A stretch of DNA of 32,000 nucleotides from Candidatus Jordarchaeales archaeon (GCA_038889235.1 JAWAHN010000001.1:644499-676498), one strand, 5' to 3'; positions 4,036 to 24,818 are shown, numbered from the stretch's first letter. Notes: generated by a model from the letters alone, not told the origin. Numbers and translations are program-made.

Positions 4036-4182
4036 GCGGGGGTTGCCTAGTGGCTAGCTTAAAAGCCCGCAAAAGGCGCTGGCCTGGAGCCCGATGACTG
4101 AAAGCCAGTGACCCGAAAACTCGCGTGGCTAACACGCGTAGCCGGAGGGGTCGCGTGGGTTCGAATCCCACCCCCCGCGCCA
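4036..4182 (+). tRNA. tRNA-Ser(GGA) with three introns
   Basis: Acceptor GCGGGGG/CCCCCGC, G73, encoded CCA; anticodon stem CTGGC/GCCAG. Introns at 4056-4072 (D-loop), 4090-4102 (37/38) and 4119-4147 (variable arm). Spliced length 88 nt with variable arm GACCC-GAAA-GGGTC. Confidence 0.88.
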
Positions 4183-4264
4183 AACTCATTTTCACTGAGG
4201 CTGTGTCTCAGGGGACTTAAAGAGAAAAATATAATGTTATTCTAGTTTGAACGGGCTCCGCCAC

Positions 4265-4693
4265 TTATATGTCAAGAACGAAAACCAGGCGGACTTTGCC
4301 TTCTTTGACGTCGATCTCCATTTCGTGGTATGTCGCCGCTTTGACGTGTGTTTTTGACACGTGTTTTTCGTGGTTAAATTTTTCTCCTTTGGCAGTTGCA
4401 ACAAGTTTGTAGCCCCCGTCCTCCTTTGTTATCTTTTTTACTTTGAAATCTGAAAAGACAAGACGTTCAGAATCTGTTAGGTATATGAATTCTTCAAGCC
4501 AGTTATACAATAGGTTTTCCAAGTCGCTGCCCTCAACTTCTATCTTCTTTTCTACAACAGGGGTTACCTTAGAAATGTCCGTCATTAACTCGTAAAGTCC
4601 TCTTGCTGCCTCCTCGAAAGCCTCTTCAAGCGTTTTTCCCTCAGCCTCTATTTTAACATCTGCCGTGTGCTCGAGGAACCTGAATTGTCCCAT
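4265..4693 (-). CDS. Archease (RtcB RNA-ligase cofactor)
   Basis: FRFLEHTADVKIEAEG..LEEAF..AA and VKAATYH motifs; ATG at 4693 after GGAGGG. Confidence 0.9.
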   Translation of the reverse strand: MGQFRFLEHTADVKIEAEGKTLEEAFEEAARGLYELMTDISKVTPVVEKKIEVEGSDLENLLYNWLEEFIYLTDSERLVFSDFKVKKITKEDGGYKLVATAKGEKFNHEKHVSKTHVKAATYHEMEIDVKEGKVRLVFVLDI

Positions 4694-4836
4694 GTTTTTC
4701 CCTCCACGCAAGAATTTTGACATAACTTAGCTCGTTATGAAGGAAAAACTTTCCCCCTACGATGAGAGGAGGGGGCTAGGCATCAAGAAAAAGATCCCGG
4801 TGGTGTCCTTGATAATACTAAGTTTCAAAATAGGCG

Positions 4837-5367
4837 ATGGCGAGAAGACAATCCGAAAAAGTGTCGGAGGATTCCTGGTTGAAGTATGTTAAAGTGGTCT
4901 TTTTGGGGTTGCCCTCGGTTGGCAAGACGAGCATTATAACGCTTTTGAGTGAAAACAGAGTTGTTAGAAGCTACGATCCAACGATAGGCGTCGATTTTGG
5001 TTCAGTGTCCATCGGCGAGTGTGAGGTCTCATTGTGGGATCTTGCAGGACAAGAGAGGTTTCAATTTCTCTGGGATGACTTCATAAAGGGCGCGAAGATC
5101 ATTTTCGCGGTTAGTGATTCAACGCCGAAGAATGTTTTGCAAACGAAAAAGATAATAGATGAGATTAGAGGGAAAACTGATGCTCTTATAATAGGTATAG
5201 CTAACAAGCAAGACCTTCCGGGAGCTATGAAGCCAAGTCAAGTTGAGAGTATACTTAAGGTTCCAACTTACGGTATGGTCGCAATAGACCCTAGGAAGAG
5301 AGTTAAAATGTACAGTATTTTGAGGCAAGCTTTAGAGCAGACTGTTCTAGCTGTGGCGAGCAATTAG
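4837..5367 (+). CDS. Ras-superfamily (Rab/Arf-like) small GTPase
   Basis: G1 GLPSVGKT, G2 PTIG, G3 WDLAGQERF, G4 NKQD; 176 aa. Confidence 0.9.
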   Translation: MARRQSEKVSEDSWLKYVKVVFLGLPSVGKTSIITLLSENRVVRSYDPTIGVDFGSVSIGECEVSLWDLAGQERFQFLWDDFIKGAKIIFAVSDSTPKNVLQTKKIIDEIRGKTDALIIGIANKQDLPGAMKPSQVESILKVPTYGMVAIDPRKRVKMYSILRQALEQTVLAVASN

Positions 5368-5434
5368 CTGTCATCACTTCTCTCCGCGAAACTTTTTATG
5401 CTAACTTTGGCTGACATGGTTTTGGGGTCTGTAA

Positions 5435-5788
5435 GTGAGCCCGTTTGAGTATGGATCACTGGGTAAGCCTCCGGTGAAGCCGCATGCCGTTCCTAAGGAC
5501 ATTAAGGACATTTCACCATCTGATGGACTTGTTAGGGTTATTGGTGTCGTCGTGGAGTCCACTCCCGGATACATCCTCATCGATGATGGAACTGGGGTGA
5601 TCAGAGTGGCCTTAACGGGAGATACACCCACCCCTGAAATAGGGAAGGTTGTCAGAATTTTTGGTTCTGTGGCGAAGAACAGCAGAGGGGATACATACAT
5701 TAATGCTGAAATTGTGCAGGATATGAGCGTCCTAGACCTGGGGCTTTATAGGAGAGTAAAGAACATTAAAAAACGTGGTTTAACATGA
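5435..5788 (+). CDS. Small OB-fold protein, RPA small-subunit (RPA3/RPA14)-like
   Basis: VRVIGVV..LIDDGTG..VRIFG..INAEIVQD single OB fold with a C-terminal helix (LDLGLYRRV); directly upstream of PCNA. Confidence 0.65.
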   Translation: MSPFEYGSLGKPPVKPHAVPKDIKDISPSDGLVRVIGVVVESTPGYILIDDGTGVIRVALTGDTPTPEIGKVVRIFGSVAKNSRGDTYINAEIVQDMSVLDLGLYRRVKNIKKRGLT

Positions 5789-5818
5789 AAATTAAAGGGG
5801 AAGTAAGGAGGGGAAAAA

Positions 5819-6574
5819 ATGCCGTTTAGAGCGAAGTTCTCAGACGCGCGAACTTGGAAGAAGGTTATTGACGCTATAGAGGTGCTCGTAGACGAGGCTG
5901 TCTTTAGGGCAAACAAGGAGGCTTTGAAAGTTAGAGCCATGGATCCAAGCCACGTTGCTATGGTGGATGTTTACCTGCCTGCAGCGATATTCGACGAATA
6001 CGAGTGCAGTGGCGATGTGGCAATAGGCGTTAGTCTCGACGAGATGAGGAAAGTAATGCGTAGGGCTAGCTCAAATGACGAGCTAGAACTAGTCCTAGAC
6101 GAGTCAGCAGGTAATTTGCGTGTGCACCTTAAGGGAGCTACCAGTAGAACTTTTAGACTTTCCCTTCTAGATATAGGAAGAGAGGAGCCGCCCACACCGT
6201 CAATTAAGTTCAACGTCGAAGCAAAACTGCTATCTGACGCATTGGTCCAGGCATTAAAGGATGCCGAGCTTTTCAGTGAACACGTCCAGATCTCTGCGAC
6301 GCCGGAAGGTGTGCGAATTACTGCCTCCGGGGATACTAGCGGAGTAGAAGTCAAAATAGACAAAGGAAGCGAGGCGCTTTTAGAGCTGAATGTCACCGAG
6401 AGCGCTAGGGCAATATACGCCCTCAGCTACCTCTCAGACATGGTTAAAGCTGCTTCAGCAAGTGAGACAGTAACTGTCAGTTTCTCCACAGACATGCCTT
6501 TAAAGCTCGAGTTCAGAGTTCTCGGGGAAGGCAGAATAACCTACTGGCTTGCTCCAAGAATAGAGGCAGAATGA
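5819..6574 (+). CDS. pcn: DNA polymerase sliding clamp PCNA
   Basis: AMDPSHVAMVD, FDEYEC, YALSYL, DMPLKLEF, C-terminal YWLAPRIE. Confidence 0.97.
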   Translation: MPFRAKFSDARTWKKVIDAIEVLVDEAVFRANKEALKVRAMDPSHVAMVDVYLPAAIFDEYECSGDVAIGVSLDEMRKVMRRASSNDELELVLDESAGNLRVHLKGATSRTFRLSLLDIGREEPPTPSIKFNVEAKLLSDALVQALKDAELFSEHVQISATPEGVRITASGDTSGVEVKIDKGSEALLELNVTESARAIYALSYLSDMVKAASASETVTVSFSTDMPLKLEFRVLGEGRITYWLAPRIEAE

Positions 6575-6628
6575 TGGCGGGATTTTCGAGGAAAACTTCG
6601 AAGACACTTTCTCACCCTGACAAACTAA

Positions 6629-7735
6629 ATGAGAGAGGAGCGGTCAGAAATCATTTCTCGCTACTTTATCGCCAAGTACCCATTCACCGTTGAAGCACAG
6701 GCTTGGCTTAGGGAGAGGAAGATTGACTTAGACTTCCTGGTTAAGGAGATGCCTGCCGTATTAGTCAGGGCAAGAGACAGAGTGATAAAAGCTCTTGAAG
6801 AAGGAGTTGCACCGTCGATTTTAGATGACCCTGAAGCTGAATTCCTCTCGTTCCCTATAGCAAGAATGATTGTCGAAATAGTTGGAGACCCATTTTTACG
6901 CCACAGGTTCGCAGTAGCTGAGGCGAAAAGAGCTCAAGGCTTTTTCAAGGAAGAAGATGTGGAAACGTTAACTGTCATAGCTACACGGACCTTCGGGATC
7001 GACTGTCAGCCTGTCAAGAAAGATATCAGTGGAAGAGTGTATTCGTTCAAAATTCACTTCGCGGATTACTTAAGGTATGCCTCCGGCTTTCATGACCCTT
7101 ACTGGAAGCTCGTTAACAGGGTTCTTTCTAAAGGATATGTCTTTCTCGCTAAAGATGATTTTACGAGAATACTAGCTGGTGCAGTTGAAAAAAGGCTGCT
7201 TGAGCCACGTGAGCCGCCTTTGAAGGTGCCCTCGGAGATCAAACAAATTGTCGACGAGGTTGTGTCCAAAGTTATGGCCAGACGGGAGAGATATGTACTG
7301 GAAGAAGTCGAGGGAGGAGAAGTAGTGGAGGAGGCGTTCCCTCCCTGTATATCAGCACTAATTCTAGCTCTAAGGAAGAACCAGCCTCTGCCTCATAGCG
7401 CTAGGTTTACTCTGACCTCGTTCCTACTTAGCGTCGGGTACTCTGTTGACAGAATTATTTCTCTGTTCAGTGAGATACCAGACTTCAAGGAGGAAATAAC
7501 GAGGTATCAAGTTGAGCACATTGCAGGAATAAGAAGCGGCACGAGGTACACGCCCCCGAAATGCGAAACTATGAAAACCTACGGGTTATGCTTGTTTCAT
7601 GAAAAATGCAGAAACATAAGGCACCCCTTGGAATACTATAGGAAATACAAGCGCCACCGTTCTAAGGAGGCTGTGAAACTTGATTCCGGAGGACAAGCGG
7701 GTGAGGAACGAAATATTCCTCAAGGGTCTCTTTAG
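6629..7735 (+). CDS. priL: DNA primase large subunit
   Basis: AKYPF N-terminus; FPPCI, PHSARF, YQVEHIAG, YTPPKC...LC...C [4Fe-4S] domain. Confidence 0.93.
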   Translation: MREERSEIISRYFIAKYPFTVEAQAWLRERKIDLDFLVKEMPAVLVRARDRVIKALEEGVAPSILDDPEAEFLSFPIARMIVEIVGDPFLRHRFAVAEAKRAQGFFKEEDVETLTVIATRTFGIDCQPVKKDISGRVYSFKIHFADYLRYASGFHDPYWKLVNRVLSKGYVFLAKDDFTRILAGAVEKRLLEPREPPLKVPSEIKQIVDEVVSKVMARRERYVLEEVEGGEVVEEAFPPCISALILALRKNQPLPHSARFTLTSFLLSVGYSVDRIISLFSEIPDFKEEITRYQVEHIAGIRSGTRYTPPKCETMKTYGLCLFHEKCRNIRHPLEYYRKYKRHRSKEAVKLDSGGQAGEERNIPQGSL

Positions 7736-8927
7736 GAAGTATTACCAGGAGAACAAGGTCAGTCCACCTCTTTCCATCGAGAAAAGGGAGTTTGGGTTCA
7801 TGTTTTTTGGTTCACAAAACATGGTGCGGCACTTGTCCTTTACCAACGCTGAAAGTCTTCAGCAGTTCATGTTTTCCAGGGTACCGTCTAACGCATTCTA
7901 CTCTGCAGCTTACTACTCGAAGCCCGACGCAGCGAAAATGGATGAGAAAGGATGGGAGGGGTGTGACCTCATATTTGACATTGACGCAGACCACCTTAGA
8001 ACGCCTTGCAAGGAAACACATGACAAATGGGTTTGCCAGAACTGTGGAGAAAGTGGATTAGGAGGAAGACCTGAAAAGTGTCCGCGGTGCGGGGGACAAA
8101 ACATAGAAGAGAGGACGTGGCTGTGCGAAACATGCTTAGAGACAGCAAAGAACGAACTGATAAAACTCATAGAAGATTTTTTGATGGCTGACTTTGGAAT
8201 TAGTGCGGACGAATTAAGAGTGGTTTTCTCGGGTCACAGAGGTTATCACGTTCACATAACTTCACGGGTATTACTGGACTTGGACCAAAACGCGAGGCGC
8301 GAAATAATAGACTATATAAAAGGTGTAGGAATAGAACCATACTACCATGGGCTTATGGAGGTACGAGAAGGAAGAAGTAAAATCCTGAAGGGGCCACGTG
8401 TTAGCGAGGAAGGGTGGAGAGGAAGATTAGCTAGAGGAGTAATTAAAACAATATTATCAATGAGCGAGGAAAGCATTCCACAGGATAGAAAAGTAAGGGC
8501 GGCTTTGCAAAAACTGCTCAAGGATAGAAGCCGGGTAGTCGCATCTTTGGGGGAAGGCATATGGGACCCTGTGAGGGGGGTCAGCTTAGACGCTTGGAAG
8601 TACGTAGTGAAGACTGCCATTGAGGAAGTTGGAGGGAAAGTTGACGAACCTGTAACTTCCGACGTTAGGAGATTAATAAGGCTCCCAACTTCTTTGCATG
8701 GAAAAACAGGATTTAAAGTATCTTTAGTCAAACTGGGAGAAATCTCCAATTTCGATCCATTTAGGCATGCTTTAGCTTTTAAAGGAGAAGTTACCGTTCA
8801 CGTGAATGAAGCTCCGAGATTCAGAATAGGGGAAGAAGAATTTGGACCATTTAAGGATGAAGACGTGGAACTCCCCCTCTCGGCGGCAGTTCTCTTACTG
8901 TGTAAAAGTGTTGCCTACTTGAAGTAG
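7680..8927 (+). CDS. priS: DNA primase small (catalytic) subunit
   Basis: KREFGF, RHLSF, DLIFDIDAD, FSGHRGYHVH, DEPVTSDVRRLIRLPTSLHGKTG; carries a Cys-rich Zn-ribbon insertion. Confidence 0.95.
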   Translation: MIPEDKRVRNEIFLKGLFRKYYQENKVSPPLSIEKREFGFMFFGSQNMVRHLSFTNAESLQQFMFSRVPSNAFYSAAYYSKPDAAKMDEKGWEGCDLIFDIDADHLRTPCKETHDKWVCQNCGESGLGGRPEKCPRCGGQNIEERTWLCETCLETAKNELIKLIEDFLMADFGISADELRVVFSGHRGYHVHITSRVLLDLDQNARREIIDYIKGVGIEPYYHGLMEVREGRSKILKGPRVSEEGWRGRLARGVIKTILSMSEESIPQDRKVRAALQKLLKDRSRVVASLGEGIWDPVRGVSLDAWKYVVKTAIEEVGGKVDEPVTSDVRRLIRLPTSLHGKTGFKVSLVKLGEISNFDPFRHALAFKGEVTVHVNEAPRFRIGEEEFGPFKDEDVELPLSAAVLLLCKSVAYLK

Positions 8928-8936
8928 GAGGGAGCT

Positions 8937-9473
8937 GTGGTGTACAAGGAGATACGCGAAGCGTGGCTTGCCGAACAAAAAGAGGGGGGCATTCGGACGT
9001 TGGACAGCGAGTTCTTCGAGAGGGCAGCAGGATATCTTAGACGCTTAGAAGCTTTAGAGGAAGAGAGTGAGCTGGTCAAGGTTAAAAGGGAAAGAGTACG
9101 GTACATGCTGATGGATCTTATCGAGCTACGATTAGAGAAGATGTTTTCGAGCATAATTATTAGTACTCCAATAAATCCCGGGGCACTAACCCAGAAGGAA
9201 AGAGAGATCTATGGTGAGCTTCAAGGGTTATTTGAGACGAGAGAGAGCGAGGAAGAGTTGGGTGAGGAGGAATATGTATTGGTACGCATGCTAGTCGACT
9301 TACCAGAGATTGTTGGAGTAGATCTTCAAATCTATGGTCCATTCAAAGCAGAGGACATAGTAACGCTTCCCAGGGACAATGCGATTGCTCTCATAAGAAA
9401 GGGTGTGGCTGTTCCCATAATGGTAGACAGCAAGAGAAATTCCAAGGTGAGTGAGCTACCTACTCAAAGTTAA
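8937..9473 (+). CDS. ginS: GINS subunit, Gins51 (A-B domain order) type
   Basis: Helical N-terminal domain plus C-terminal B domain (LVRMLVDLPEIVGVDLQIYGPFKAEDIVTLP..NA); follows priS. Confidence 0.85.
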   Translation: MVYKEIREAWLAEQKEGGIRTLDSEFFERAAGYLRRLEALEEESELVKVKRERVRYMLMDLIELRLEKMFSSIIISTPINPGALTQKEREIYGELQGLFETRESEEELGEEEYVLVRMLVDLPEIVGVDLQIYGPFKAEDIVTLPRDNAIALIRKGVAVPIMVDSKRNSKVSELPTQS

Positions 9474-9621
9474 AGAGCTGGATGTTTTTCAACATAGCAC
9501 CGCAAAAACTTTTTAAGTGTCCCGGCTGTTGTTCTTTCTAAAACTAGATAATGAGTGCTTTATAACTGTCAACTTGTGTTCTTCTCATAAGAGTTTAAAA
9601 TGAAAAAAAGGGTGAAACGTA

Positions 9622-10107
9622 TTGGGCAAGGTTACCGTTGAGGCGCTCGTTGAGGGAGGAAAGGCGACTGCTGGCCCACCGATAGGACCAGCCTTAGGCC
9701 CTACGGGAGTAAATCTGTACCAAGTAGTCCAAAAGATAAATGAGCTGACAGCTAAGTTTAAAGGACTTAAAGTTCCCGTAAAGATAACGGTTGACACAGA
9801 TGACAAATCCTTTGAAGTAGAGGTGGGCGTCCCGCCCACTTCAGCTTTGATCTTAAGCAAGTTAGGGAAAGAAAAAGCCACCGGAAGCCCGGGAAAGGAG
9901 GTTACAGGTGACATTTCGATGAAAGATATAGTTGAGATAGCAAAGATGAAGCGCAGCCAGTTGACGGCTAAAACTTTGGCTGGAGCGGTGAGGACGGTAC
10001 TCGGAACCTGTGTTTCTATGGGGATCACTGTGGACGGCAAGGATCCAAGGGTTGTCCAGAAAGAGGTGCTAGAAGGCAAGTATGACCATCTTCTAGTTGA
10101 GGATTAA
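9622..10107 (+). CDS. rpl11: 50S ribosomal protein L11 (uL11)
   Basis: GGKATAGPPIGPALGP; VLGTCVSMGITVDG. Confidence 0.97.
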   Translation: MGKVTVEALVEGGKATAGPPIGPALGPTGVNLYQVVQKINELTAKFKGLKVPVKITVDTDDKSFEVEVGVPPTSALILSKLGKEKATGSPGKEVTGDISMKDIVEIAKMKRSQLTAKTLAGAVRTVLGTCVSMGITVDGKDPRVVQKEVLEGKYDHLLVED

Positions 10108-10141
10108 TTTCGAGCACTAAGGGAAATAAAGGGGGTTTACA

Positions 10142-10804
10142 ATGCCCATCGACAAAAAGGAATTAATTGAGGCGTTGAAAAAGGTCGATGAGATTTCGAA
10201 AAAAAGAAACTTCGTGGAAGCTATAGAGTTGATGGTTAATCTGAAGGATATTGACCTTAAAAAGCCGGAAAACCGCATAAACACCGAGCTTGTTCTTCCG
10301 AATGAGATTGGCGGAGAACCAAATGTTTGTGTTATCGCCTCAGGAGAGCTGGCAGTAAAAGCTAAGGATCTCAATGTGAGGGTGTTAGACAAAGATGAGC
10401 TCCAAAGTCTGGCGGGTAATAAGAAAGCTATAAAGAAGCTTGCTAAGACGTACGATTTCTTCATAGCATCAGTAGATCTTATGCCTCTCGTTGGTAAAAT
10501 CCTTGGTGCCATTCTTGGGCCTAGGGGAAAGATGCCTAAACCAGTACCCCCTAACACCGACCTAAGAGCTGTGCTTGAAAACTATAAGAAAACTGTTAGG
10601 TTGAGAATGAGAGATAATCCTTGTATACACGCCAAGGTTGGCACCAGAGGGATGGATAAAGAAAAGCTGGCTGAAAACATTAATGCGATTTTGTCTTTCC
10701 TTGAGGAGAAACTCGAGCGGGGACCTAGCAACATAAAGTCCATTTATTTGAAGACAACCATGGGGCCCTCTGTTAAAGTGCCATACGTGAGGAGTAAGAG
10801 GTGA
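10142..10804 (+). CDS. rpl1: 50S ribosomal protein L1 (uL1)
   Basis: KRNFVEAIELMVNLKDIDL, LGPRGKMP, YLKTTMGP. Confidence 0.97.
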   Translation: MPIDKKELIEALKKVDEISKKRNFVEAIELMVNLKDIDLKKPENRINTELVLPNEIGGEPNVCVIASGELAVKAKDLNVRVLDKDELQSLAGNKKAIKKLAKTYDFFIASVDLMPLVGKILGAILGPRGKMPKPVPPNTDLRAVLENYKKTVRLRMRDNPCIHAKVGTRGMDKEKLAENINAILSFLEEKLERGPSNIKSIYLKTTMGPSVKVPYVRSKR

Positions 10805-10810
10805 AAGAGA

Positions 10811-11824
10811 GTGCAGGTTGAACTAACTGCAAGGGGAAGGCCTGTTCCAGAATACAAGGTGAAAAGAGTAAGTGAAATTAAGCGGCTTATGGAAACATAT
10901 AAAGTCATAGGTATTGCCAATATAGAGGGGATAGGAGCGAAGCAGCTTCAGGAGTTAAGAAGCAAGCTAAGAGGGCAAGTTCTGATAAAAGTGGAGAAAA
11001 ACACGTTGGTCAAAAAAGCTATAGAGAAACTCGCCAGGTCAAAGAAGGGAATAGAACTGCTTATGGAGCACATCAAAGGACCTATAGCGCTTATTTTCAC
11101 CAATATGAATCCAGTTAAACTTAACATGATATTCGAAAAGAACAAGACCAAGGCGCCGATTAAACCTGAATCGGTTACACCTGTAGACATAATAGTTCCA
11201 GCTGGAAATACAGGTCTTCCTCCTGGACCTATAATAAGTGAGCTTGGAAGCGTGGGACTTCCTACAAGGGTGCAATCTGGAACCATATGGATAACCAAAG
11301 ATACACTTGTGGCTAGGGCGGGGGAAGTTGTATCGAAAAACCTTGCAGAAGTTTTAAGAAAACTGAAGATAGAGCCGTTAGAAATTGGATTGGCTTTATC
11401 TGCGGCTTACGCTGATGGAATAGTGTTTACGGAGAAGGATTTGAAGATTAACATTCAAGACGTTCTTGATGAGGTCAAGAAAGCACACGTTGAAGCGGTA
11501 AATCTTGCTGTTTCAGCGCAGGCGGCTATTCCAGAAGTAATGCCATTCATTCTTCAGAAAGCGTACCAGGAGGCGTTTAACCTTGCAGTTAACGCTGCTA
11601 TTCCTACGGTTGAAACCTTGCCGCACATCTTGAAGATAGCTGAGAGTAGGGCAATGAGCCTAGCTGCTGCCGTGGCAAGTAAGAGGCCAGACGCTGTTCC
11701 AGAGGATGTTTTCAAAGCGGCAAAAGCTGAGGGCGAAAAAGTTCCAGAAAGAAAAGAGGAAAAAGAAACTAAGAAGGAGGAAGCTGAAGAAGAAATCGGC
11801 GGTCTGGGTATGTTATTTGGCTAA
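10811..11824 (+). CDS. rpl10: Acidic ribosomal protein P0 (uL10)
   Basis: P..K...V, KVEKNTL, GNTGLPPGP, acidic tail ending GLGMLFG. Confidence 0.96.
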   Translation: MQVELTARGRPVPEYKVKRVSEIKRLMETYKVIGIANIEGIGAKQLQELRSKLRGQVLIKVEKNTLVKKAIEKLARSKKGIELLMEHIKGPIALIFTNMNPVKLNMIFEKNKTKAPIKPESVTPVDIIVPAGNTGLPPGPIISELGSVGLPTRVQSGTIWITKDTLVARAGEVVSKNLAEVLRKLKIEPLEIGLALSAAYADGIVFTEKDLKINIQDVLDEVKKAHVEAVNLAVSAQAAIPEVMPFILQKAYQEAFNLAVNAAIPTVETLPHILKIAESRAMSLAAAVASKRPDAVPEDVFKAAKAEGEKVPERKEEKETKKEEAEEEIGGLGMLFG

Positions 11825-11830
11825 ATGTGT

Positions 11831-11843
11831 GAAACCTTTAAAA
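11831..11843 (+). promoter_or_regulatory. Putative internal BRE/TATA promoter for rpl12
   Basis: GAAACC-TTTAAAA in the rpl10-rpl12 gap, about 45 nt upstream of the ATG; SD GGGGTGA before the start. Confidence 0.45.
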
Positions 11844-11886
11844 GTACTCATCGAAATTAGAAGTTGACAAAAAGGGGTGAAGTGAA

Positions 11887-12201
11887 ATGGAGTATATATA
11901 TGCTGCAATGCTTCTTCACCGTGCGGGGAAGGGTATAAACGAAGAGAATATGAAAAAAGTTCTAACTGCTGCAGGGATATCTCCTGACGAGGTTAGGGTC
12001 AAAGCACTGGTCGCAGCTCTGGAAGAGATAAATATTGACGAAGCAATTAAGAGCGCAGTAACGATGCCTATGGTGGCAGCGGCTGCAGCGCCGCAGCAAG
12101 CAGAGGTGCCAACAGCTAAGGAAGAAAAGAAAGAGAAAGAAAAGAAAGAAGAGAAGAAGGAAGAAGAAGTATTAGAGGGACTTGGTGCTCTCTTCGGTTA
12201 A
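11887..12201 (+). CDS. rpl12: Ribosomal stalk protein P1/L12
   Basis: [20 protein letters not shown], Ala-rich hinge, acidic tail ending GLGALFG. Confidence 0.97.
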
Positions 12202-12228
12202 TTAAACAGCGCAAATCAATGCTTGTTT

Positions 12229-14967: not shown

Positions 14968-15071
14968 CGGGAACACCTCTTTGTGAGGGCGAGGGATGCT
15001 TTCTTGTTGCAAGTAAATTTTGAGGCGGGAAAGTCTAAAAACCTTCCTCACGAATAGGATTTTTTAACAGT

Positions 15072-15770
15072 ATGAATAACTGTGGTATGGTGTTTAGTGG
15101 TGAAAGTAGGTTGTTTGAGTTAGATGAAGCGAAATTGAGGAGAGCGGCTGAAGAGGTAAGATACCTTTTGAACAGGGGGTATAATAGAGAAAGTGTTCTC
15201 AAATTCGTTGCAGATCACCACCATCTTGACAAGGTGCATAGAACAATCCTCATGAGAAGTGTCTTTAGTAGTGGTGAAATAGAGGAAAGGAGGAGGAAAA
15301 CCGTCTCATTCAAAGACCTTAATGGTGAAACGCTTTCCGTCGATGGGTATAATGTACTGATAGTCATTGAAACGATGATGAGAAACGGACTTCTGATAGA
15401 GGGGGATGATGGATATATAAGAGACATGTCGGGAGTTCATGGAAAGTACAGGGCGACGAATCTAACAGCTGAAGCTCTAAGCATTATCTTGGAAAAGCTC
15501 GAGAGTGCTAACCCAAAAAAAGTCTTGATATTCTTTGACAAGCCGGTAAGCAAAAGTGGGGAGTTAGCTAAAGCTACAAGACAGCTCATGAAAGAACATA
15601 GAATAGAAGGAGATAGTTTAACTGTAAGACGAGCAGATAGCACTGTGCTAAAAGCAGGAGGTGTAGCGCTCACAAGCGACAGCGTGATTCTACAGAAAGC
15701 CAGAAAATGTTTTGATATAGCGGGGCACATAGTCAAGGAAAGAGGCTATAGGAAAATCCTAAAACTGTGA
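15072..15770 (+). CDS. DUF434-family protein (PIN-like fold suspected)
   Basis: YLLNRGY, VDGYNVLI, DGYIRD.SGV.GKY, DKPVSKSGELA, TSDS motifs recalled for this family. Confidence 0.7.
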   Translation: MNNCGMVFSGESRLFELDEAKLRRAAEEVRYLLNRGYNRESVLKFVADHHHLDKVHRTILMRSVFSSGEIEERRRKTVSFKDLNGETLSVDGYNVLIVIETMMRNGLLIEGDDGYIRDMSGVHGKYRATNLTAEALSIILEKLESANPKKVLIFFDKPVSKSGELAKATRQLMKEHRIEGDSLTVRRADSTVLKAGGVALTSDSVILQKARKCFDIAGHIVKERGYRKILKL

Positions 15771-16021
15771 GCAAATTGATATGATGCGTACAAGAGTCAT
15801 TTCAGAAATCATTGTAAGTATCTGAATTTCGGTTTTCTGACGTGTTTCATCGAAGCTACCGATGGTTGAGTAGCTAGCTCAAAGTAGTTGTCTGCCGGCA
15901 TCATGGTTGTTGCATAGGGTAAGAAAGGTCAATGTTTCTTGGGATGGTGAAAACTGGACGCGATGTGATCCTCGAATCTCTTAACATGAAAAACACGAAG
16001 AAGAACACGAAGAGGCATAAC

Positions 16022-16030
16022 ATATAAAAA
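16022..16030 (+). promoter_or_regulatory. TATA box of tRNA-Arg
   Basis: ATATAAAAA about 30-38 nt upstream of the mature 5' end at 16060. Confidence 0.5.
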
Positions 16031-16059
16031 CTTGTCGAGAAATACCACTCTTGAGTGGC

Positions 16060-16192
16060 GGTCCCGTCGCCTAGCCAGGAGAGGAAACTGAAAGGGCGCC
16101 GACCGGGTGGGCGTAAGCCTTCTAAGCCGGAATTCCCGGGTTCAAGTGTTTCCGCCTTTGGGGCGGAATTGAAAGTCCCGGCGGGACCGCCA
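16060..16192 (+). tRNA. tRNA-Arg(TCT) with three introns
   Basis: Acceptor GGTCCCG/CGGGACC, G73, CCA; anticodon loop CT-TCT-AA. Introns at 16082-16092 (D-loop, 20a/21), 16102-16116 (29/30) and 16147-16175 (59/60). Spliced length 78 nt. Confidence 0.92.
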
Positions 16193-16216
16193 TCAATTTT
16201 CCCTTCCTGTCGTCGT

Positions 16217-17185
16217 CTATTGATGCCTGAAGTGTTCGTAACCTCTCCAATTGACCTTGATCCACCCCTTTTCAGGGTGCTTGAATATTATCTCGTTTTC
16301 AGACGTCACGCGTCCTATTCGATGTAATGAGCCACCGGCCTTTTCTATAGCCTTCACAGCCTCGCCCCATTTTGCTTCTGGTATTGTGACAACTAACTCG
16401 TATTCTTCACCTCCGTAAAATGCAAGCTCGTAGGGATCCAGTCCATTTCTTTGAGCGAAAAATAGAACTTCAGGTGGAATGGGAACAGTTTCTATGGAGA
16501 AACCAACATTGCTTGCTCTCGCTAATTCATGGAGGGATACGGCCAGCCCGTCGCTACTATCTATGCATGAGGAGGCATAACCTCCCTTGGCAAGGACCAC
16601 TCCTTCTTTCACCCTAGGTTCAGGCTGGTATACTGCTTTTAAACAGCGTTTTCCTTCATCCCCCGCCTCTAATCCTTCAAGAAGTATTTTTAGCCCAGCT
16701 GCTGTTAGTCCGAATGGACCTGTCACTGCAACGACTTCGCCTGGCTTAGCTCCCGTTCTCGGTATAAATCTTTCAGTCACGCCTAACACCGCGCCGGAGA
16801 TGACAACCTCGTCAGACTCGTTAACGTCTCCTCCGAGGTAGTGCGCTCCGTAGAAATTAGAGGCTTCCTTTATTCCACTAGCGATTTCAAGAGCATCATC
16901 CACTTTAAACCATCTTGGAAGACCAAAAGCATAAAGTCCACCTATGGGTTCAGCTCCCTTGGCAGCTAAATCGCTTAAATTCATCGCTACGACTTTCCAT
17001 CCCACCTGTTTCCAGGTCATTCCTGGGGGGACGTCTGTTCTTGCAACGAGCATGTCCGAGCTGAAAACCAGTGTTACATTGCCAAGTTGGATTACCGCAG
17101 CGTCTTCACCATAAGAGCGTTCATCGTCTATGAAGGCCAGAAGTTGTTCAACCAGTTTTCTCTCACCTAACCTACTCAACTCCAT
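16217..17185 (-). CDS. thiL: Thiamine-monophosphate kinase
   Basis: GEDAAV, SSDML, MNLSDLAAKGA, GGD, IDSSDGL, GGEEYELV; start trimmed to MELSRLGE. Confidence 0.93.
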   Translation of the reverse strand: MELSRLGERKLVEQLLAFIDDERSYGEDAAVIQLGNVTLVFSSDMLVARTDVPPGMTWKQVGWKVVAMNLSDLAAKGAEPIGGLYAFGLPRWFKVDDALEIASGIKEASNFYGAHYLGGDVNESDEVVISGAVLGVTERFIPRTGAKPGEVVAVTGPFGLTAAGLKILLEGLEAGDEGKRCLKAVYQPEPRVKEGVVLAKGGYASSCIDSSDGLAVSLHELARASNVGFSIETVPIPPEVLFFAQRNGLDPYELAFYGGEEYELVVTIPEAKWGEAVKAIEKAGGSLHRIGRVTSENEIIFKHPEKGWIKVNWRGYEHFRHQ

Positions 17186-17714
17186 AAAATAAACACCCCA
17201 CCTAAGGAGGGCGAGAAGAAAAAATAAATTTCGCGAAAAAGATGGCGAAGAGCACACTTAGTAGCTTAGCTGTTCAACTTTCTGCGGAATTTAACAACAC
17301 ACAGTGCAAGGCACACATCTTTGTGGCTGTTCGGTCGACATACTTTTCCAGCAGTCTACTGAAAGCCTAGAACTACCACCACTCACATTCAGCTACGCGC
17401 CTAAGTCACTTTGCTAGCGTAACAACCGCCAGTTCCGATTCGTCATCTCCTCTAAAGACTCACAATACTCTATCGCAGCTTTTTTCACTTCACCAGAAAA
17501 CTTGTACAAATCTTCCAGTAAATTACTGGCCACGCACTTAACGGCCCCCTTTAACTTTTTCTATTTCAAGCGTATCTTGAAACACTCTTTTAAAGAAACG
17601 AACAAGAGAACATTCGGTTTCCTGATGATTTTTCAATAGAGAAGTCAGAATTTCCGTTTTGCCAAGAGAGCCATGTAAAAGACGACAGCTCCTCGACAAA
17701 ACTTTCTCGTTAGG

Positions 17715-17829
17715 TGGAGCCCCGGGCGGGTTTTTCTACAGCGACTCGAACCCGCGGCCTGCGGCTTACGAGGCCGCCGCTCTACCGGTTGCCCGCCAAT
17801 TTCAAAAAGACGCTCTGAGCTACCGGGGC
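17715..17829 (-). tRNA. tRNA-Thr(CGT) with two introns
   Basis: Acceptor GCCCCGG/CCGGGGC, U73, CCA; GCGGC-CT-CGT-AA-GCCGC. Introns at 17789-17814 (15/16) and 17732-17744 (59/60). Spliced length 76 nt. Confidence 0.92.
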
Positions 17830-18069
17830 TCTAATCCATTTTTCATGGATTGAAGCATATTAATCTTTCCCATTTTTAACCTACCGTGCTTCATGAAGAG
17901 ACCGATCTTGGTTCGTTGTTCTTTTTCGCTTTTGGAAGTGATTCCATTTTAGAACTGATAATTGGTGTTTAAATTTCCTTGAGGAAAAGAGCTAAAAAGA
18001 GTTAAATATCTGTGTCTTTTCCCTTTTTTAGGAACCTTTGTTTTTTATGTCTTTTAAGGGTGAAGTGAA

Positions 18070-19431
18070 ATGGTTTTGGATGCTTTGGGTGAGGGGCTGA
18101 GGAACGCCATTAGTAAGCTTCTTCGTTCGACTGTTGCGGATAGGGAGGCTGTTAGAGAGCTTGTAAGGGAAATGCAGCGTGTTTTACTTTCCTCCGACGT
18201 CAATGTTGAGCTTGTGCTCCGCCTCTCAGAAAATATTGAGAGGAGGGCGCTCGAGGAGGAGCTACCCTTAGGTATTAGTAGAAGAGAACATATTGTTAAG
18301 ATCGTTTACGATGAGTTGGTGAAGATTTTAGGTGGTAGACCGCGTGGTTTGAATATTAAGCCTGGACGATTAAATGTTATAATGCTGGTTGGGATACAGG
18401 GTTCCGGGAAAACAACCACGGCAGCTAAGCTAGCGAAGTATTTAGTTAAACGGGGATTCAAGGTTGGGCTCGTTTGTGCAGACACATTCCGCTTAGGGGC
18501 CTATGAGCAACTCAGCCAGCTGGCTGAGTCTATTGGTGTACCTTTCTTTGGGGACGTTAATAGCAAGAGCAGCGTTGATGTCGCCAGAAGGGGGATTGAG
18601 TTCTTCCGGGAAAAGGGGGTTGACGTAGTAATAGTTGATACCGCTGGAAGGCATAAGAACGAAGCAGACCTTATGGAGGAAATGAAGGAAATCGCTAATG
18701 CCATTAAGCCTACTGAAATAATACTTGTTGTTGATGGAACTTTAGGTCAGCAAGCGATGGTTCAAGCTAAGGCGTTTAAAGAAGCCACAGATATAGGCTC
18801 AATAATTGTAACGAAACTTGATGGCACTGCTAGGGGTGGAGGGGCGCTTTCAGCGGTAGCTGCAACGGGTGCGCCTATAAAATTTATAGGGATAGGAGAA
18901 AAACTGGACGACATAGAAGCCTTTGACCCTGTTGGCTTTGTAGGGCGGCTTCTGGGAATAAGCGATTTGCGTGCGCTCCTTGAAAAAGTAAGAGAAGCGG
19001 AAATTAAGCCCGAAAAAGAGGAAGTAGTGGCTTTACTCACAGGTCGCTTCACATTGAAGGACTTCTTCAGGTGGATGGAGCAGGCTAGGAAAATGGGACC
19101 TGTGGGGAGGATCTTTGAGCTAATGGGCTTATCTGGCATACCAAAAGAGCTTAGAGAGGTCGCTGAGACAAAACTTGAAAGGTGGAAAGTTATAATGCAG
19201 TCTATGACAAAAGAAGAACTGGAGAACCCTAAGATACTTAACAGGTCGAGGGTGAACAGAATTGCAAGAGGGTCTGGGACTACGCCTAAAGAGGTCAAGG
19301 AACTAATAGACCAATATTTTGCGGCGAAAAAAATGGTTAAGGTACTAGGCAAGAGGAGAATGCGTGGAAAGGGATTGCCACTTCACGGCTTTTCCTTAGA
19401 CCAAATGGGGAAGCTAGTGGGAAAAACATGA
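18070..19431 (+). CDS. srp54: Signal recognition particle protein SRP54
   Basis: GIQGSGKTTT, DTAGRH, TKLDG.ARGGGALS; M domain with SRVNRIARGSG. Confidence 0.97.
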   Translation: MVLDALGEGLRNAISKLLRSTVADREAVRELVREMQRVLLSSDVNVELVLRLSENIERRALEEELPLGISRREHIVKIVYDELVKILGGRPRGLNIKPGRLNVIMLVGIQGSGKTTTAAKLAKYLVKRGFKVGLVCADTFRLGAYEQLSQLAESIGVPFFGDVNSKSSVDVARRGIEFFREKGVDVVIVDTAGRHKNEADLMEEMKEIANAIKPTEIILVVDGTLGQQAMVQAKAFKEATDIGSIIVTKLDGTARGGGALSAVAATGAPIKFIGIGEKLDDIEAFDPVGFVGRLLGISDLRALLEKVREAEIKPEKEEVVALLTGRFTLKDFFRWMEQARKMGPVGRIFELMGLSGIPKELREVAETKLERWKVIMQSMTKEELENPKILNRSRVNRIARGSGTTPKEVKELIDQYFAAKKMVKVLGKRRMRGKGLPLHGFSLDQMGKLVGKT

Positions 19432-19994
19432 GACATTTCTATATAGTATTGAATGCTATCCCTGTGATTTCAAAAAGGGAAGTCGATCACGGGCAGTTGA
19501 GCGACGAAGTGGCTGAACTTTGTTCCTGTATTAGAGCGGCGCTTTTCCTCTCTCACGACATAAGACGTGATGTTAGAGTCCACCTCATACTACTCGGAGA
19601 GAGAAAAGACGTGGTAATTTCCGGTGAAAGTGTCAGGTACCTCTCTCCTGACGAGAGGTCGCTTTGCATGCTTTTAATTAAGTTCAGTGAGAGGAAAACT
19701 AGGAAACCTTGGAGAGGCGTTTGCGTAAAAGAATTCGCTTCCCTCCGAGAGATATTCCCCTCAGACGGTGTGCTAATAGTTCCTAATGATGAAAGAGACG
19801 AACTTCAGCAAGTAGAAAATTTGAAAGAGGTCATGTTAATTGTTCCATTGAATCCATTAGGAAAGTTAGAAAGAGAGTTGGATAATGTAAAAAAGCTGCA
19901 TGTTAAAGTTTGCGGTAAACTTGACCCAAGTAGTCTTATAACTGTTATAAACAACCGAATCGATATAACGGAGGAGCAACAATGTTCCCTCTAA
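19428..19994 (+). CDS. trmY: TrmY-like (tRNA pseudouridine-54 N1-methyltransferase, SPOUT) homologue, degenerate
   Basis: ALFLSHDIRRDV and SPDERS motifs, C-terminal ITVINNRID; sits between srp54 and pus10 with overlapping start/stop codons. Confidence 0.7.
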   Translation: MRHFYIVLNAIPVISKREVDHGQLSDEVAELCSCIRAALFLSHDIRRDVRVHLILLGERKDVVISGESVRYLSPDERSLCMLLIKFSERKTRKPWRGVCVKEFASLREIFPSDGVLIVPNDERDELQQVENLKEVMLIVPLNPLGKLERELDNVKKLHVKVCGKLDPSSLITVINNRIDITEEQQCSL

Positions 19995-21352
19995 ATAAAG
20001 CCCTTGAAATGCTCGAAAGAACCCCGCTTTGCAACAGCTGCTTAGGTAGACAGTTCGCCCTTTTAGGAATGGGGTCAAACAACCCGAACAGAGGGTATGC
20101 ACTTAAAATGGTTCTAACCATGGCCGCAGCACATATGCTCAGAGATAAACCAGAAGAGGGGACGAGAATACTCAGGATACTTGCAACGAACGGCATGTTT
20201 CAGCCAGCTGTTGAGACCCTAGAGAAAGAGGGTATGAAAGTTGAGAAAGATGAGAAAAAATGCTACATCTGCGGTGGACTTATGATGAAGAAAAAAGAGA
20301 TAGCAGAGAAAGTCGTAGAAGTGCTGAAAAACTACGATTACAGAAACTTCCTCATCGGATGCCACGTCCCCTCGTCACTGACAGAAAAAGATGATGAGCT
20401 TAAGGCGACACACCAAATAGACACCGGCGAAACGATAAAGGCGGAATTTAATAGAGAAGTTGGAAAGATAGTTTCAGCAATGACGGGAAAACCTGTTGAT
20501 TTCAAGAACCCCGATGTGGTCGCCATAGTAAACCTCGAAAGTCTAGACGTCACAGTAAATTCTAACCCACTGTACATAGGAGGACGTTACCTAAAACACG
20601 TCAGAGGCATACCGCAAACCAAGTGGCCCTGCAGAGTCTGCAAGGGTAAAGGATGCCCGAGATGCGGGGGAACCGGGAAGATGTACAGCGAGTCTGTTGA
20701 AGAGTTAATCCTCCCACCTATACTTGAGGAAACAAGAGGGGACGAGGGGAAATTCCATGGAGCAGGAAGGGAAGATATAGATGCAAGAATGCTTGGAACA
20801 GGTAGACCGTTCATAGTTGAAATTAAGAACCCGAAGAGGCGCAACATAGACTTAAAGCTCCTAGAAGAGAAGATAAACGCTTATGCCCAAGGGAAAGTGG
20901 AAGTGCATTCCCTGCAATTTGCAGTAAAGGAAAACGTGCGACAACTTAAAGCATTATCACAATTTGCCCCTAAGACTTACAGGGCGCTTGTTAAACTAGA
21001 CAGAGAAGTAACACCACAGGAGCTAGAAGAATTAGAGAAGCGACTTGCAGGACAAACAATAAGGCAAAAGACACCTAGGAGGGTCGCTCATAGAAGAGCA
21101 ATAAAGACCAGGCTCAAAAAAGTTTACCAAGTTCAGGCTAAACAAATAGACCCACAAACCATAGAGTTAACAGTAACATGCCAGGGAGGATTGTACGTAA
21201 AAGAACTTGTGACCGGCGACAAAAGAAGAACCAGGCCAAGCGTGGCAGAAATCCTCCAAACGAAAGCAGAGTGCGTGGAATTAGACGTTATAGACGTTGG
21301 TACCGCGATTCCACAAGAAACAGTACAGCAAAACGAGAAAAAAGCCACGTAG
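19982..21352 (+). CDS. pus10: tRNA pseudouridine(54/55) synthase Pus10
   Basis: LCNSCLGRQF, GGRYLKHVRGIPQTKW, FHGAGREDIDARMLGTGRPF, GGLYVKELVTGD..RT.PS. Confidence 0.95.
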   Translation: MFPLNKALEMLERTPLCNSCLGRQFALLGMGSNNPNRGYALKMVLTMAAAHMLRDKPEEGTRILRILATNGMFQPAVETLEKEGMKVEKDEKKCYICGGLMMKKKEIAEKVVEVLKNYDYRNFLIGCHVPSSLTEKDDELKATHQIDTGETIKAEFNREVGKIVSAMTGKPVDFKNPDVVAIVNLESLDVTVNSNPLYIGGRYLKHVRGIPQTKWPCRVCKGKGCPRCGGTGKMYSESVEELILPPILEETRGDEGKFHGAGREDIDARMLGTGRPFIVEIKNPKRRNIDLKLLEEKINAYAQGKVEVHSLQFAVKENVRQLKALSQFAPKTYRALVKLDREVTPQELEELEKRLAGQTIRQKTPRRVAHRRAIKTRLKKVYQVQAKQIDPQTIELTVTCQGGLYVKELVTGDKRRTRPSVAEILQTKAECVELDVIDVGTAIPQETVQQNEKKAT

Positions 21353-21403
21353 AAAGAGGGCAAAAAATTTATCTAAGACTCATCTACTTTCTTTCATGAT
21401 GGT

Positions 21404-21514
21404 GGGCCCGTAGCTCAGCTAGGTAGAGCGGCAGAAAATGAACGCCGAAGCTCATAACCTGTTGGTCCAGGGTTCGAATGTGATAAAACGCCGAAAATCC
21501 CTGCGGGCCCACCA
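21404..21514 (+). tRNA. tRNA-Ile2(CAT) with two introns (elongator Met is the less likely alternative)
   Basis: GGGCCCG/CGGGCCC, A73, CCA; the G31-C39 pair and GGGCCC acceptor fit archaeal Ile2. Introns at 21435-21449 (30/31) and 21479-21497 (59/60), both clean BHBs. Spliced length 77 nt. Confidence 0.85.
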
Positions 21515-21543
21515 CCATTCAAAATGTTAAAGCAAGCAATCCT

Positions 21544-21556
21544 AAAAGCTTTTAAA
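21544..21556 (+). promoter_or_regulatory. BRE/TATA promoter of tRNA-Glu
   Basis: AAAAGC-TTTTAAA about 29-41 nt upstream of the mature 5' end. Confidence 0.55.
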
Positions 21557-21584
21557 TCCGTTTTCTATTCTATTTCGTGCTAGT

Positions 21585-21715
21585 GCCTCGGTGGTGTAGC
21601 CCGGCCAAATTTAATGATGCTGAAAGCATAAGGGGCTTAGGAGTAAATCCGCCCAATCGACCCCTTGACCCGGGTGGTTAAGAGCCAGGGAATTCAAATC
21701 CCGGCCGAGGCACCA
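21585..21715 (+). tRNA. tRNA-Glu(TTC) with three introns, one splitting the anticodon
   Basis: GCCTCGG/CCGAGGC, A73, CCA; Glu-type D arm (GTGT/GCAT) and 4-nt variable loop. Introns at 21608-21624 (20b/21), 21639-21656 (34/35) and 21675-21692 (53/54). Spliced length 78 nt. Confidence 0.88.
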
Positions 21716-21842
21716 ATCACTTCTAATTTTTGACAAAGCTAAAGTTATTACAAGAAACTAAACGAGATTCCCTCTTTGTTAGGAGCCGCGAGAAAAAGTC
21801 CAAAATGTTCTGGAAATGGGCTTTAGGGAAAATATGATGTAA

Positions 21843-21980
21843 TGGCGCCGGGGGCAGGATTTCCGTGGGAGGACCCCATCTCGAACTTCCGCCCTTTTTA
21901 GGGGCTGCGACCACCGGGTTAACAGCCCGGCGCTTTAGGCTACTTTAAGCGGTGATCTACCTGGTCTGAGCTACCCCGGC
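21843..21980 (-). tRNA. tRNA-Asn(GTT) with three introns
   Basis: GCCGGGG/CCCCGGC, G73, CCA; CCGGG-CT-GTT-AA-CCCGG. Introns at 21935-21956 (22/23), 21887-21904 (52/53) and 21860-21879 (59/60). Spliced length 78 nt. Confidence 0.92.
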
Positions 21981-22422: not shown

Positions 22423-23073
22423 TTATAAGTCTTGTTGCAGTTCACTTGCTCCTTTTGGTCTAAGAAGAATATAGGGTCCCATTCTAAGGCGGCTTGCTTC
22501 TTCTTCAGACATTTCTTCTACTTTAATTTTTTCTTGGTCTTGCGGTATTATCATTCCGTTTCCGAGAGGATCCTCTAGGATTATTGTGAATTTCAGGTGT
22601 CCGTCTATTGCTTTCTGGATGCTTTGTATTGCTTGCTGGCACTTTTGAGTCTCTTGGGGTGTTGTTGACCAGTTTTTCAACGTTTGTGCAATGTCCAGAA
22701 AACGGTGTAAGACACCTTCCACGTTTGTTATGAATGGCTGTGCTGCTGGTCCCGGTTCTAGGATTGCACCGAGTTCTGGGATTCTTATGGTGCTTGTAAC
22801 GGAACGTATTACTTTGGATGAGAGATCTGATGGTTCCCTAACTTGTAGAATGTACCTCATGGGTTTTCCAAATCTCATGCTCACCACGTCACTTACTCTT
22901 AGATTGCAGTTACTGCATTTAACGGTTACTAGCAACACTTCGTGGAAAAACGGTACATCTACATGCACTTGAGTCGTCTTTGCTTTACTACCGCAGGATG
23001 GGCATGTAATTTCCTCTTCTACTGCTTCTTCAGATGCGTGATTCGAGGTATTCGATGAGTTTTTCGGCTTCAT
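22423..23073 (-). CDS. ZPR1-type zinc finger protein
   Basis: CPSCG...VPFF.EV...C.NC, KVIRS....IRIPELG..LEPG, ITNVEGVL.R, LEDPLGNG; start uncertain (overlaps the rpa stop). Confidence 0.88.
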   Translation of the reverse strand: MKPKNSSNTSNHASEEAVEEEITCPSCGSKAKTTQVHVDVPFFHEVLLVTVKCSNCNLRVSDVVSMRFGKPMRYILQVREPSDLSSKVIRSVTSTIRIPELGAILEPGPAAQPFITNVEGVLHRFLDIAQTLKNWSTTPQETQKCQQAIQSIQKAIDGHLKFTIILEDPLGNGMIIPQDQEKIKVEEMSEEEASRLRMGPYILLRPKGASELQQDL

Positions 23074-24712: not shown

Positions 24713-24818
24713 AGAACACACCTGACACCGCATTCTTCACAGAATAACACTTCAAGATATTCTTTTAAGGTTCACGAGAAGGTTTGTTTGAAACAAAGGA
24801 AACGTTTATGGTGAAATA

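Follow-up and report, generated by a model that had tools for sequence, protein, structure and literature searches.

The stretch of DNA analyzed here, 32,000 nucleotides from a Candidatus Jordarchaeales archaeon (hereafter the window), holds six tRNA genes, and every one of them is interrupted by two or three short inserts. There are 16 intervening sequences of 11-30 nt, or 2.67 per gene. Fifteen of the 16 lie at non-canonical sites, and the single insert at the canonical position 37/38 belongs to tRNA-Ser(GGA). The genes were read out of GC-rich intergenic islands, and all six have a 7-bp acceptor stem and an encoded 3' CCA. The exons are 70% G+C and the introns 48%. Splice maps were built by coding the bulge-helix-bulge (BHB) rule, in which a cut falls after the second base of each 3-nt bulge flanking a 4-bp helix, and joining it with a cloverleaf solver; the maps were checked by hand and against relatives. 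The tRNA genes and their introns are as follows, with central, outer and inner referring to helices of the motif.

4036-4182, plus strand: tRNA-Ser(GGA) gene, three introns; CCA encoded; mature form 87 nt including CCA; Rfam tRNA match of 38.3 bits with three inserts; ARAGORN call after splicing; orthologues in four relatives.
4056-4072, plus strand: Ser intron 1, at 20a/21, 17 nt; BHB central helix 4/4, inner helix 4; central helix in the local minimum-energy fold.
4090-4102, plus strand: Ser intron 2, canonical 37/38, 13 nt; outer helix 7; central helix only 2/4 here, 3/4 in relatives.
4113-4142, plus strand: Ser intron 3, variable arm, about 30 nt with a boundary uncertain by 1-2 nt; BHB 3/4 here, whereas two same-genus orthologues have 4/4 at this site.
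16060-16192, plus strand: tRNA-Arg(TCT) gene, three introns; CCA encoded; found with the solver; ARAGORN call after splicing.
16082-16092, plus strand: Arg intron 1, D-loop 20a/21, 11 nt; the weakest call, central helix 3/4 and one outer pair.
16102-16116, plus strand: Arg intron 2, anticodon stem 29/30, 15 nt; BHB central helix 4/4, outer 4, inner 3; in the local minimum-energy fold.
16147-16175, plus strand: Arg intron 3, T-loop 59/60, 29 nt; BHB central helix 4/4, outer 5, inner 5; in the local minimum-energy fold.
17715-17829, minus strand: tRNA-Thr(CGT) gene, two introns; CCA encoded; found with the solver; ARAGORN call after splicing; orthologues found.
17789-17814, minus strand: Thr intron 1, D-loop 15/16, 26 nt; BHB 4/4, in which the intron's 3' end pairs with the D-stem's 5' strand.
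17732-17744, minus strand: Thr intron 2, T-loop 59/60, 13 nt; BHB central helix 3/4 with outer 5 here, whereas three of four orthologues have 4/4.
21404-21514, plus strand: tRNA-Met or Ile2 (CAT) gene, two introns; CCA encoded; found with the solver; ARAGORN call after splicing.
21435-21449, plus strand: CAT intron 1, anticodon stem 30/31, 15 nt; BHB central helix 4/4, outer 3; presence varies among relatives.
21479-21497, plus strand: CAT intron 2, T-loop 59/60, 19 nt; BHB central helix 4/4, outer 5, inner 3; in the local minimum-energy fold.
21585-21715, plus strand: tRNA-Glu(TTC) gene, three introns; CCA encoded; found with the solver; ARAGORN call after splicing.
21608-21624, plus strand: Glu intron 1, D-loop 20b/21, 17 nt; BHB central helix 4/4, inner 3; in the local minimum-energy fold.
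21639-21656, plus strand: Glu intron 2, anticodon 34/35, 18 nt; BHB central helix 4/4, inner 3; in the local minimum-energy fold.
21675-21692, plus strand: Glu intron 3, T-arm 53/54, 18 nt; BHB central helix 3/4, outer 4, inner 4.
21843-21980, minus strand: tRNA-Asn(GTT) gene, three introns; CCA encoded; partial Rfam tRNA match only; found with the solver run on the genome; ARAGORN call after splicing.
21935-21956, minus strand: Asn intron 1, D-stem 22/23, 22 nt; BHB central helix 4/4, flanking helices short.
21887-21904, minus strand: Asn intron 2, T-stem 52/53, 18 nt; BHB central helix 4/4, outer 2, inner 2.
21860-21879, minus strand: Asn intron 3, T-loop 59/60, 20 nt; BHB central helix 4/4, inner 5; in the local minimum-energy fold.

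ARAGORN finds no tRNA gene in the unspliced 32-kb window. After removal of the 16 inserts it calls all six genes with the expected anticodons, and the products are 76-87 nt long including CCA. Rfam at gathering thresholds likewise reports no tRNA in the window. With permissive filters it gives one, at 4036-4179 (38.3 bits), in which the D-loop, anticodon loop and variable region each hold a large insert, and scans of sub-regions with lax filters leave five of the six genes unaligned, with fragments at best. An initial annotation of the window, made by folding the sequence by hand, had proposed 16 introns in six tRNAs with 15 at non-canonical sites, and our splice maps arrive at the same count and the same positions. 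Its further claim that excision restores cloverleaves (of 76-88 nt) agrees with the spliced products, and its warning that standard scanners may miss such genes is borne out by the two programs and has also been published already.

The boundaries coincide with the motif expected for endonuclease-type introns. At the exact sites the central helix is perfect (4/4) in 11 of 16 cases and has at least three of its four pairs in 15 of 16, as the initial annotation had described when it assigned most sites a geometry of two 3-nt bulges around a 4-bp helix. When the boundaries were shifted by 1-8 nt as controls, only two of 239 placements gave a perfect 4-bp central helix. The local minimum-energy fold includes at least three of the central helix's four pairs at 10 of the 16 sites.

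Comparison with related genomes provides a second line of evidence. Orthologues of all six tRNA genes are present at the SRP54 locus of Candidatus Jordarchaeum sp. LHC_1308 and in four related genomes, and in four Jordarchaeaceae genomes the tRNA loci have the same neighbours and the same intron sites. The exons are identical or nearly so across four related genomes; the inserts at the same positions vary in length and sequence. For example, the mature sequence of Glu(TTC) is identical in four relatives and that of Arg(TCT) differs by 0-2 substitutions, except for a D-loop called 2 nt shorter at one locus (L107). The Arg D-loop insert measures 11, 12, 13 or 15 nt among the relatives and the flanking D-loop is constant. 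The 20a/21 site of tRNA-Ser is also occupied in four relatives by an insert of different sequence. In the Thr intron at 15/16 the 3' end is conserved and the remainder diverges, with indels. The length of the Asn insert at 22/23 is 13 nt in same-genus relatives, 22 nt in the window and 34 nt in a sister genus.

Intron presence also differs among these genomes. Exactly the 15 nt of the CAT intron at 30/31 are missing in the orthologues of three relatives (loci L001/L095, L096 and L098), and a Freyarchaeia genome (L099) has an insert at this site. In one genome (G003) the CAT-gene orthologue was not recovered, and the match found there is a different tRNA. Intron content differs between the genera, as seen in the sister genus (G004, loci L098 and L085). 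Its tRNA-Ser (L085) has a compact 17-nt variable arm without the insert, its tRNA-Asn has a fourth intron at 37/38, and its CAT tRNA has a 37/38 intron in place of the one at 30/31. From these alignments, the CAT 30/31, Ser variable-arm and Asn fourth-intron cases are taken to prove boundaries or to show turnover without recourse to the motif.

Two assignments were settled with the help of orthologues. For tRNA-Ser the solver preferred an intron at 33/34, which gives the anticodon TGA. This was rejected: the site is not conserved, the orthologues would differ in anticodon, and the 5' part of the loop is invariant. Five genomes share an invariant 5' exon of the anticodon loop, so the anticodon is GGA and the intron lies at 37/38. 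The 34-nt D-loop region of tRNA-Thr could be read as two introns, for a total of 17, and this was also rejected, as the Jordarchaeum orthologue and a 4/4 central helix indicate a single 26-nt intron at 15/16.

The contig that holds the window is 1.1 Mb long and belongs to an assembly of 2.14 Mb with 95% completeness. The SRP54 encoded in the window shares 85% identity with that of Candidatus Jordarchaeum sp. LHC_1308 and 66-69% with those of Freyarchaeota. Its nearest relatives are in Jordarchaeia, Freyarchaeota, Atabeyarchaeia and Bathyarchaeia, with no Thermoproteales genome among the best 80 loci. Three other genomes share the genus of the source genome, and all fall in one GTDB family. In the NCBI taxonomy Candidatus Jordarchaeum belongs to the class Jordarchaeia of the Asgard archaea. 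On the basis of these sequence relationships we assign the source genome to an Asgard archaeon of the genus Candidatus Jordarchaeum, and not to Thermoproteales.

Genome-wide, the picture is the same. The Rfam tRNA model gives 12 matches above cut-off in the whole genome, only one of them intron-less. We took a census by running the solver on all CCA-ended acceptor pairs, requiring an encoded CCA and a near-perfect acceptor stem, and 33 genes were separated from the background by score (at least 19.2 versus at most 17.7). All 32 genes reconstructed on the main contigs are interrupted, with 78 introns in total or 2.44 per gene, in a census that covers 32 of roughly 45 expected genes and leaves 149 long candidate spans unsolved. 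Among the 78 introns, 58 have a 4/4 central helix and only seven occupy 37/38, and the D-arm holds about 30 and the T-arm 21; as the census needs a cloverleaf and a BHB-like junction, these counts are not motif-free. The window is representative of its genome. An intron-less copy was found for none of the six tRNAs in the 95%-complete genome.

The lone intron-less tRNA of the assembly, Arg(CCG), is at 391-468 of contig C6 (locus L115), which is 5.7 kb long with 41.6% G+C. This contig also carries a CofE-like gene and, 4.2 kb away at 4576-4619, a 44-nt partial repeat of the tRNA 3' half. The chromosome has its own Arg(CCG) gene, which has three introns. Contig C6 may be a contaminant or a mobile element.

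The genome encodes enzymes that would suit such introns. There are two genes with an EndA catalytic domain (PF01974). The product of the first, 196 residues long, has its closest match in the catalytic alpha subunit of Aeropyrum pernix (3P1Z_B, E = 4e-47) and keeps the Tyr/His/Lys triad. Its alignment is ungapped through the Crenarchaea-specific loop, with K51 aligning with K44 of A. pernix. The 195-residue paralogue has Val where EndA of M. jannaschii has the catalytic His and, as expected, would fit a structural beta subunit. Judged by these features, the enzyme is of the two-paralogue type with the specificity loop on the catalytic subunit, and its predicted assembly is (alpha-beta)2. Kaneta et al. 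2018 attribute broad specificity to the Crenarchaea-specific loop and assign to Asgard archaea the (alpha-beta)2 type that carries it (PMC5829648). RtcB is present in one copy in the genome, and a gene for archease, the cofactor of the RtcB tRNA ligase, adjoins tRNA-Ser:

4265-4723, minus strand: archease gene (Pfam PF01951, E = 7e-50).

These results bear on the wider proposals of the initial annotation. It had suspected a near-saturating load of tRNA introns in a lineage outside Thermoproteales, pointing to Asgard-like genes. SRP54, the same-genus genomes and the 32 interrupted genes out of 32 all support this suspicion. The broad-specificity endonuclease that it called for has its counterpart in the two paralogues and the loop. 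Of the findings that it said would overturn its proposal, a Thermoproteales genome with already catalogued introns at these sites was not encountered, and neither were the intron-less copies that it named together with RNA data on unspliced, non-expressed genes.

We suggest, with a probability of about 0.9, that these are six functional tRNA genes of Jordarchaeum, each with two or three short endonuclease-type BHB introns. Our data show how the genes are built and how well they are conserved, which lineage they come from and which enzyme genes accompany them, and from this we infer the steps of cutting and joining. Each precursor would fold so that every exon-intron junction forms a BHB or one of its relaxed forms, hBH or HBh'. 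The heterotetrameric (alpha-beta)2 endonuclease with its loop-bearing catalytic subunit would then cut in the two 3-nt bulges, and RtcB with archease would join the exons.

Together with the two limits of the census given above, several observations weigh against this reading. Five of the 16 sites have no perfect central helix, and at six of the 16 the motif is missing from the local minimum-energy fold. Metagenome contigs scanned for the Asn T-arm in doubly spliced form yielded no match. Strict BHB motifs alone are not enriched across the window: the two strands have 125 and 86, and shuffles about 120. Therefore, the case rests on the motif coinciding both with restoration of the cloverleaf and with conservation. 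The BHB motif by itself is unusable for claiming further introns in the window.

The weakest sites are the 11-nt insert in the Arg D-loop (3/4 central pairs and almost no flanking helix), the Ser intron at 37/38 (2/4) and the Ser variable-arm insert (3/4). One or a few inserts could remain unspliced and be kept as enlarged loops, so that the true count would be 13-15. The candidates are the Arg D-loop insert, with its motif missing from the local fold, and possibly the Ser variable-arm insert. We consider this unlikely. If retained, these inserts would leave a D-loop of 21 nt or a variable arm of 46 nt, sizes beyond those of normal tRNA geometry. Among close relatives the two inserts vary in length next to flanking loop bases that stay constant, and the Ser variable-arm site has a 4/4 helix in two congeners and is empty in the sister genus.

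The rejection of all six loci by standard tRNA finders would also be expected if they were decaying tRNA pseudogenes with insertions and the functional copies were elsewhere. However, no intron-less copies were found in the genome, a family of genomes keeps the exons almost unchanged as the inserts drift, the inserts fall at BHB sites far more often than shifted controls do, and all other reconstructed chromosomal tRNA genes look alike. We regard decay as very improbable. Even less credible is a stretch that was mis-binned or acquired horizontally from Thermoproteales. The intron pattern does resemble that order (70% is quoted in PMC11291895), but the window is part of a 1.1-Mb contig, its SRP54 is closest to those of Jordarchaeum and Freyarchaeota, and loci with the same neighbours and intron sites occur in four Jordarchaeaceae genomes.

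The CAT intron at 30/31 allows some speculation about origins. Its last 11 bases equal the last 11 of the Ser(GCT) D-loop intron of the same genome (C2:433039-433202, locus L113), an intron that has a different sequence in relatives. The CAT intron at 30/31 has a further 9 bases in common with its own gene's intron at 59/60. In the whole set of 78 predicted introns there are 15 pairs with at least 9 identical bases versus 2.4 in shuffles, a figure that includes isoacceptor duplicates and is inflated by positional constraints. This species might conceivably have acquired the CAT 30/31 intron very recently, as a partial copy of another intron in the same genome, but we think this doubtful. The 11-base match could be chance together with pairing constraints.

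SRP54, a TrmY-like SPOUT methyltransferase (PF04013, partial match) and Pus10 stand in a row at 18070-21352, directly upstream of three of the tRNA genes. Pus10 forms the pseudouridines at positions 54 and 55, the first of which is methylated by TrmY. The T-loop that Pus10 and TrmY modify carries a 59/60 intron in four of the six tRNAs. No split protein genes were found in the window, and the TrmY-like gene is a continuous frame. An Arf/Ras-family small GTPase and a multi-OB-fold RPA-like protein, at 4837-5367 and 23030-24733, correspond to what had initially been described as a Rab-like GTPase and an RPA large subunit, and both fit an Asgard genome. The frame of ribosomal protein L11 opens with TTG at 9622, a candidate start. 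An ATG nearby at 9600, followed by a seven-A run, is in another frame and meets a stop after 13 codons.

The multi-intron habit of this lineage is not new, having been published in 2024 and 2026. In complete genomes of Atabeyarchaeia and Freyarchaeia, 92-95% of tRNA genes contain introns, frequently at non-canonical sites and frequently more than one per gene (Valentin-Alvarado et al. 2024, PMC11291895). A survey of 90 Asgard genomes put the number of intervening sequences at 2.0-2.2 per tRNA gene for Jordiarchaeaceae, Freyrarchaeaceae and Atabeyarchaeaceae (Goswami et al. 2026 preprint, October, 10.64898/2026.10.13.758758). According to the same preprint, tRNAscan-SE misses 30% of intervening sequences, mainly in the D-arm, two EndA paralogues are present in most of the surveyed Asgard genomes, gains are inferred to have been repeated, and the accumulation in Jordiarchaeaceae is argued to be independent of that in the other intron-rich Asgard class. 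PMC11291895 and 10.64898/2026.10.13.758758 both lack RNA evidence on this family. Our genes belong to the same lineage and carry a similar load, 2.7 per gene in the window and about 2.4 genome-wide compared with the published 2.0-2.2. Dominance of non-canonical sites in the D-arm and T-arm, genes missed by scanners, a two-paralogue EndA and presence that varies among close relatives are common to both. There is no difference in kind, and what is added here is base-level maps of six genes. There is also one possible intron-intron match here, whereas such matches were not common in the general tests of the preprint.

The Thermoproteales (Pyrobaculum, Thermofilum and Caldivirga), as far as Sugahara et al. 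2008 is cited in PMC11291895, are alike in having short BHB introns, many non-canonical sites and up to several introns per gene. They also have the (alpha-beta)2 EndA with the Crenarchaea-specific loop that is predicted here. [quoted passage not shown] With the canonical system of a 37/38 intron and an alpha4 or alpha'2 EndA (e.g., Methanocaldococcus, Haloferax), the chemistry is presumably the same, that is, two 3-nt bulges 4 bp apart followed by ligation by RtcB. In contrast, only one of the 16 introns here is at 37/38, and the others are in the D-loop, D-stem, anticodon stem, 34/35, variable arm, T-stem and T-loop. In addition, several motifs here are relaxed, and alpha4 and alpha'2 enzymes cut such motifs poorly (PMC5829648).

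Multi-intron tRNA genes that are missed by ARAGORN and Rfam can thus be reconstructed by reading alone, without tools. For the organisms themselves, nearly every tRNA in two Asgard classes would need repeated cutting and rejoining, and this would make the splicing endonuclease and RtcB essential and heavily used.

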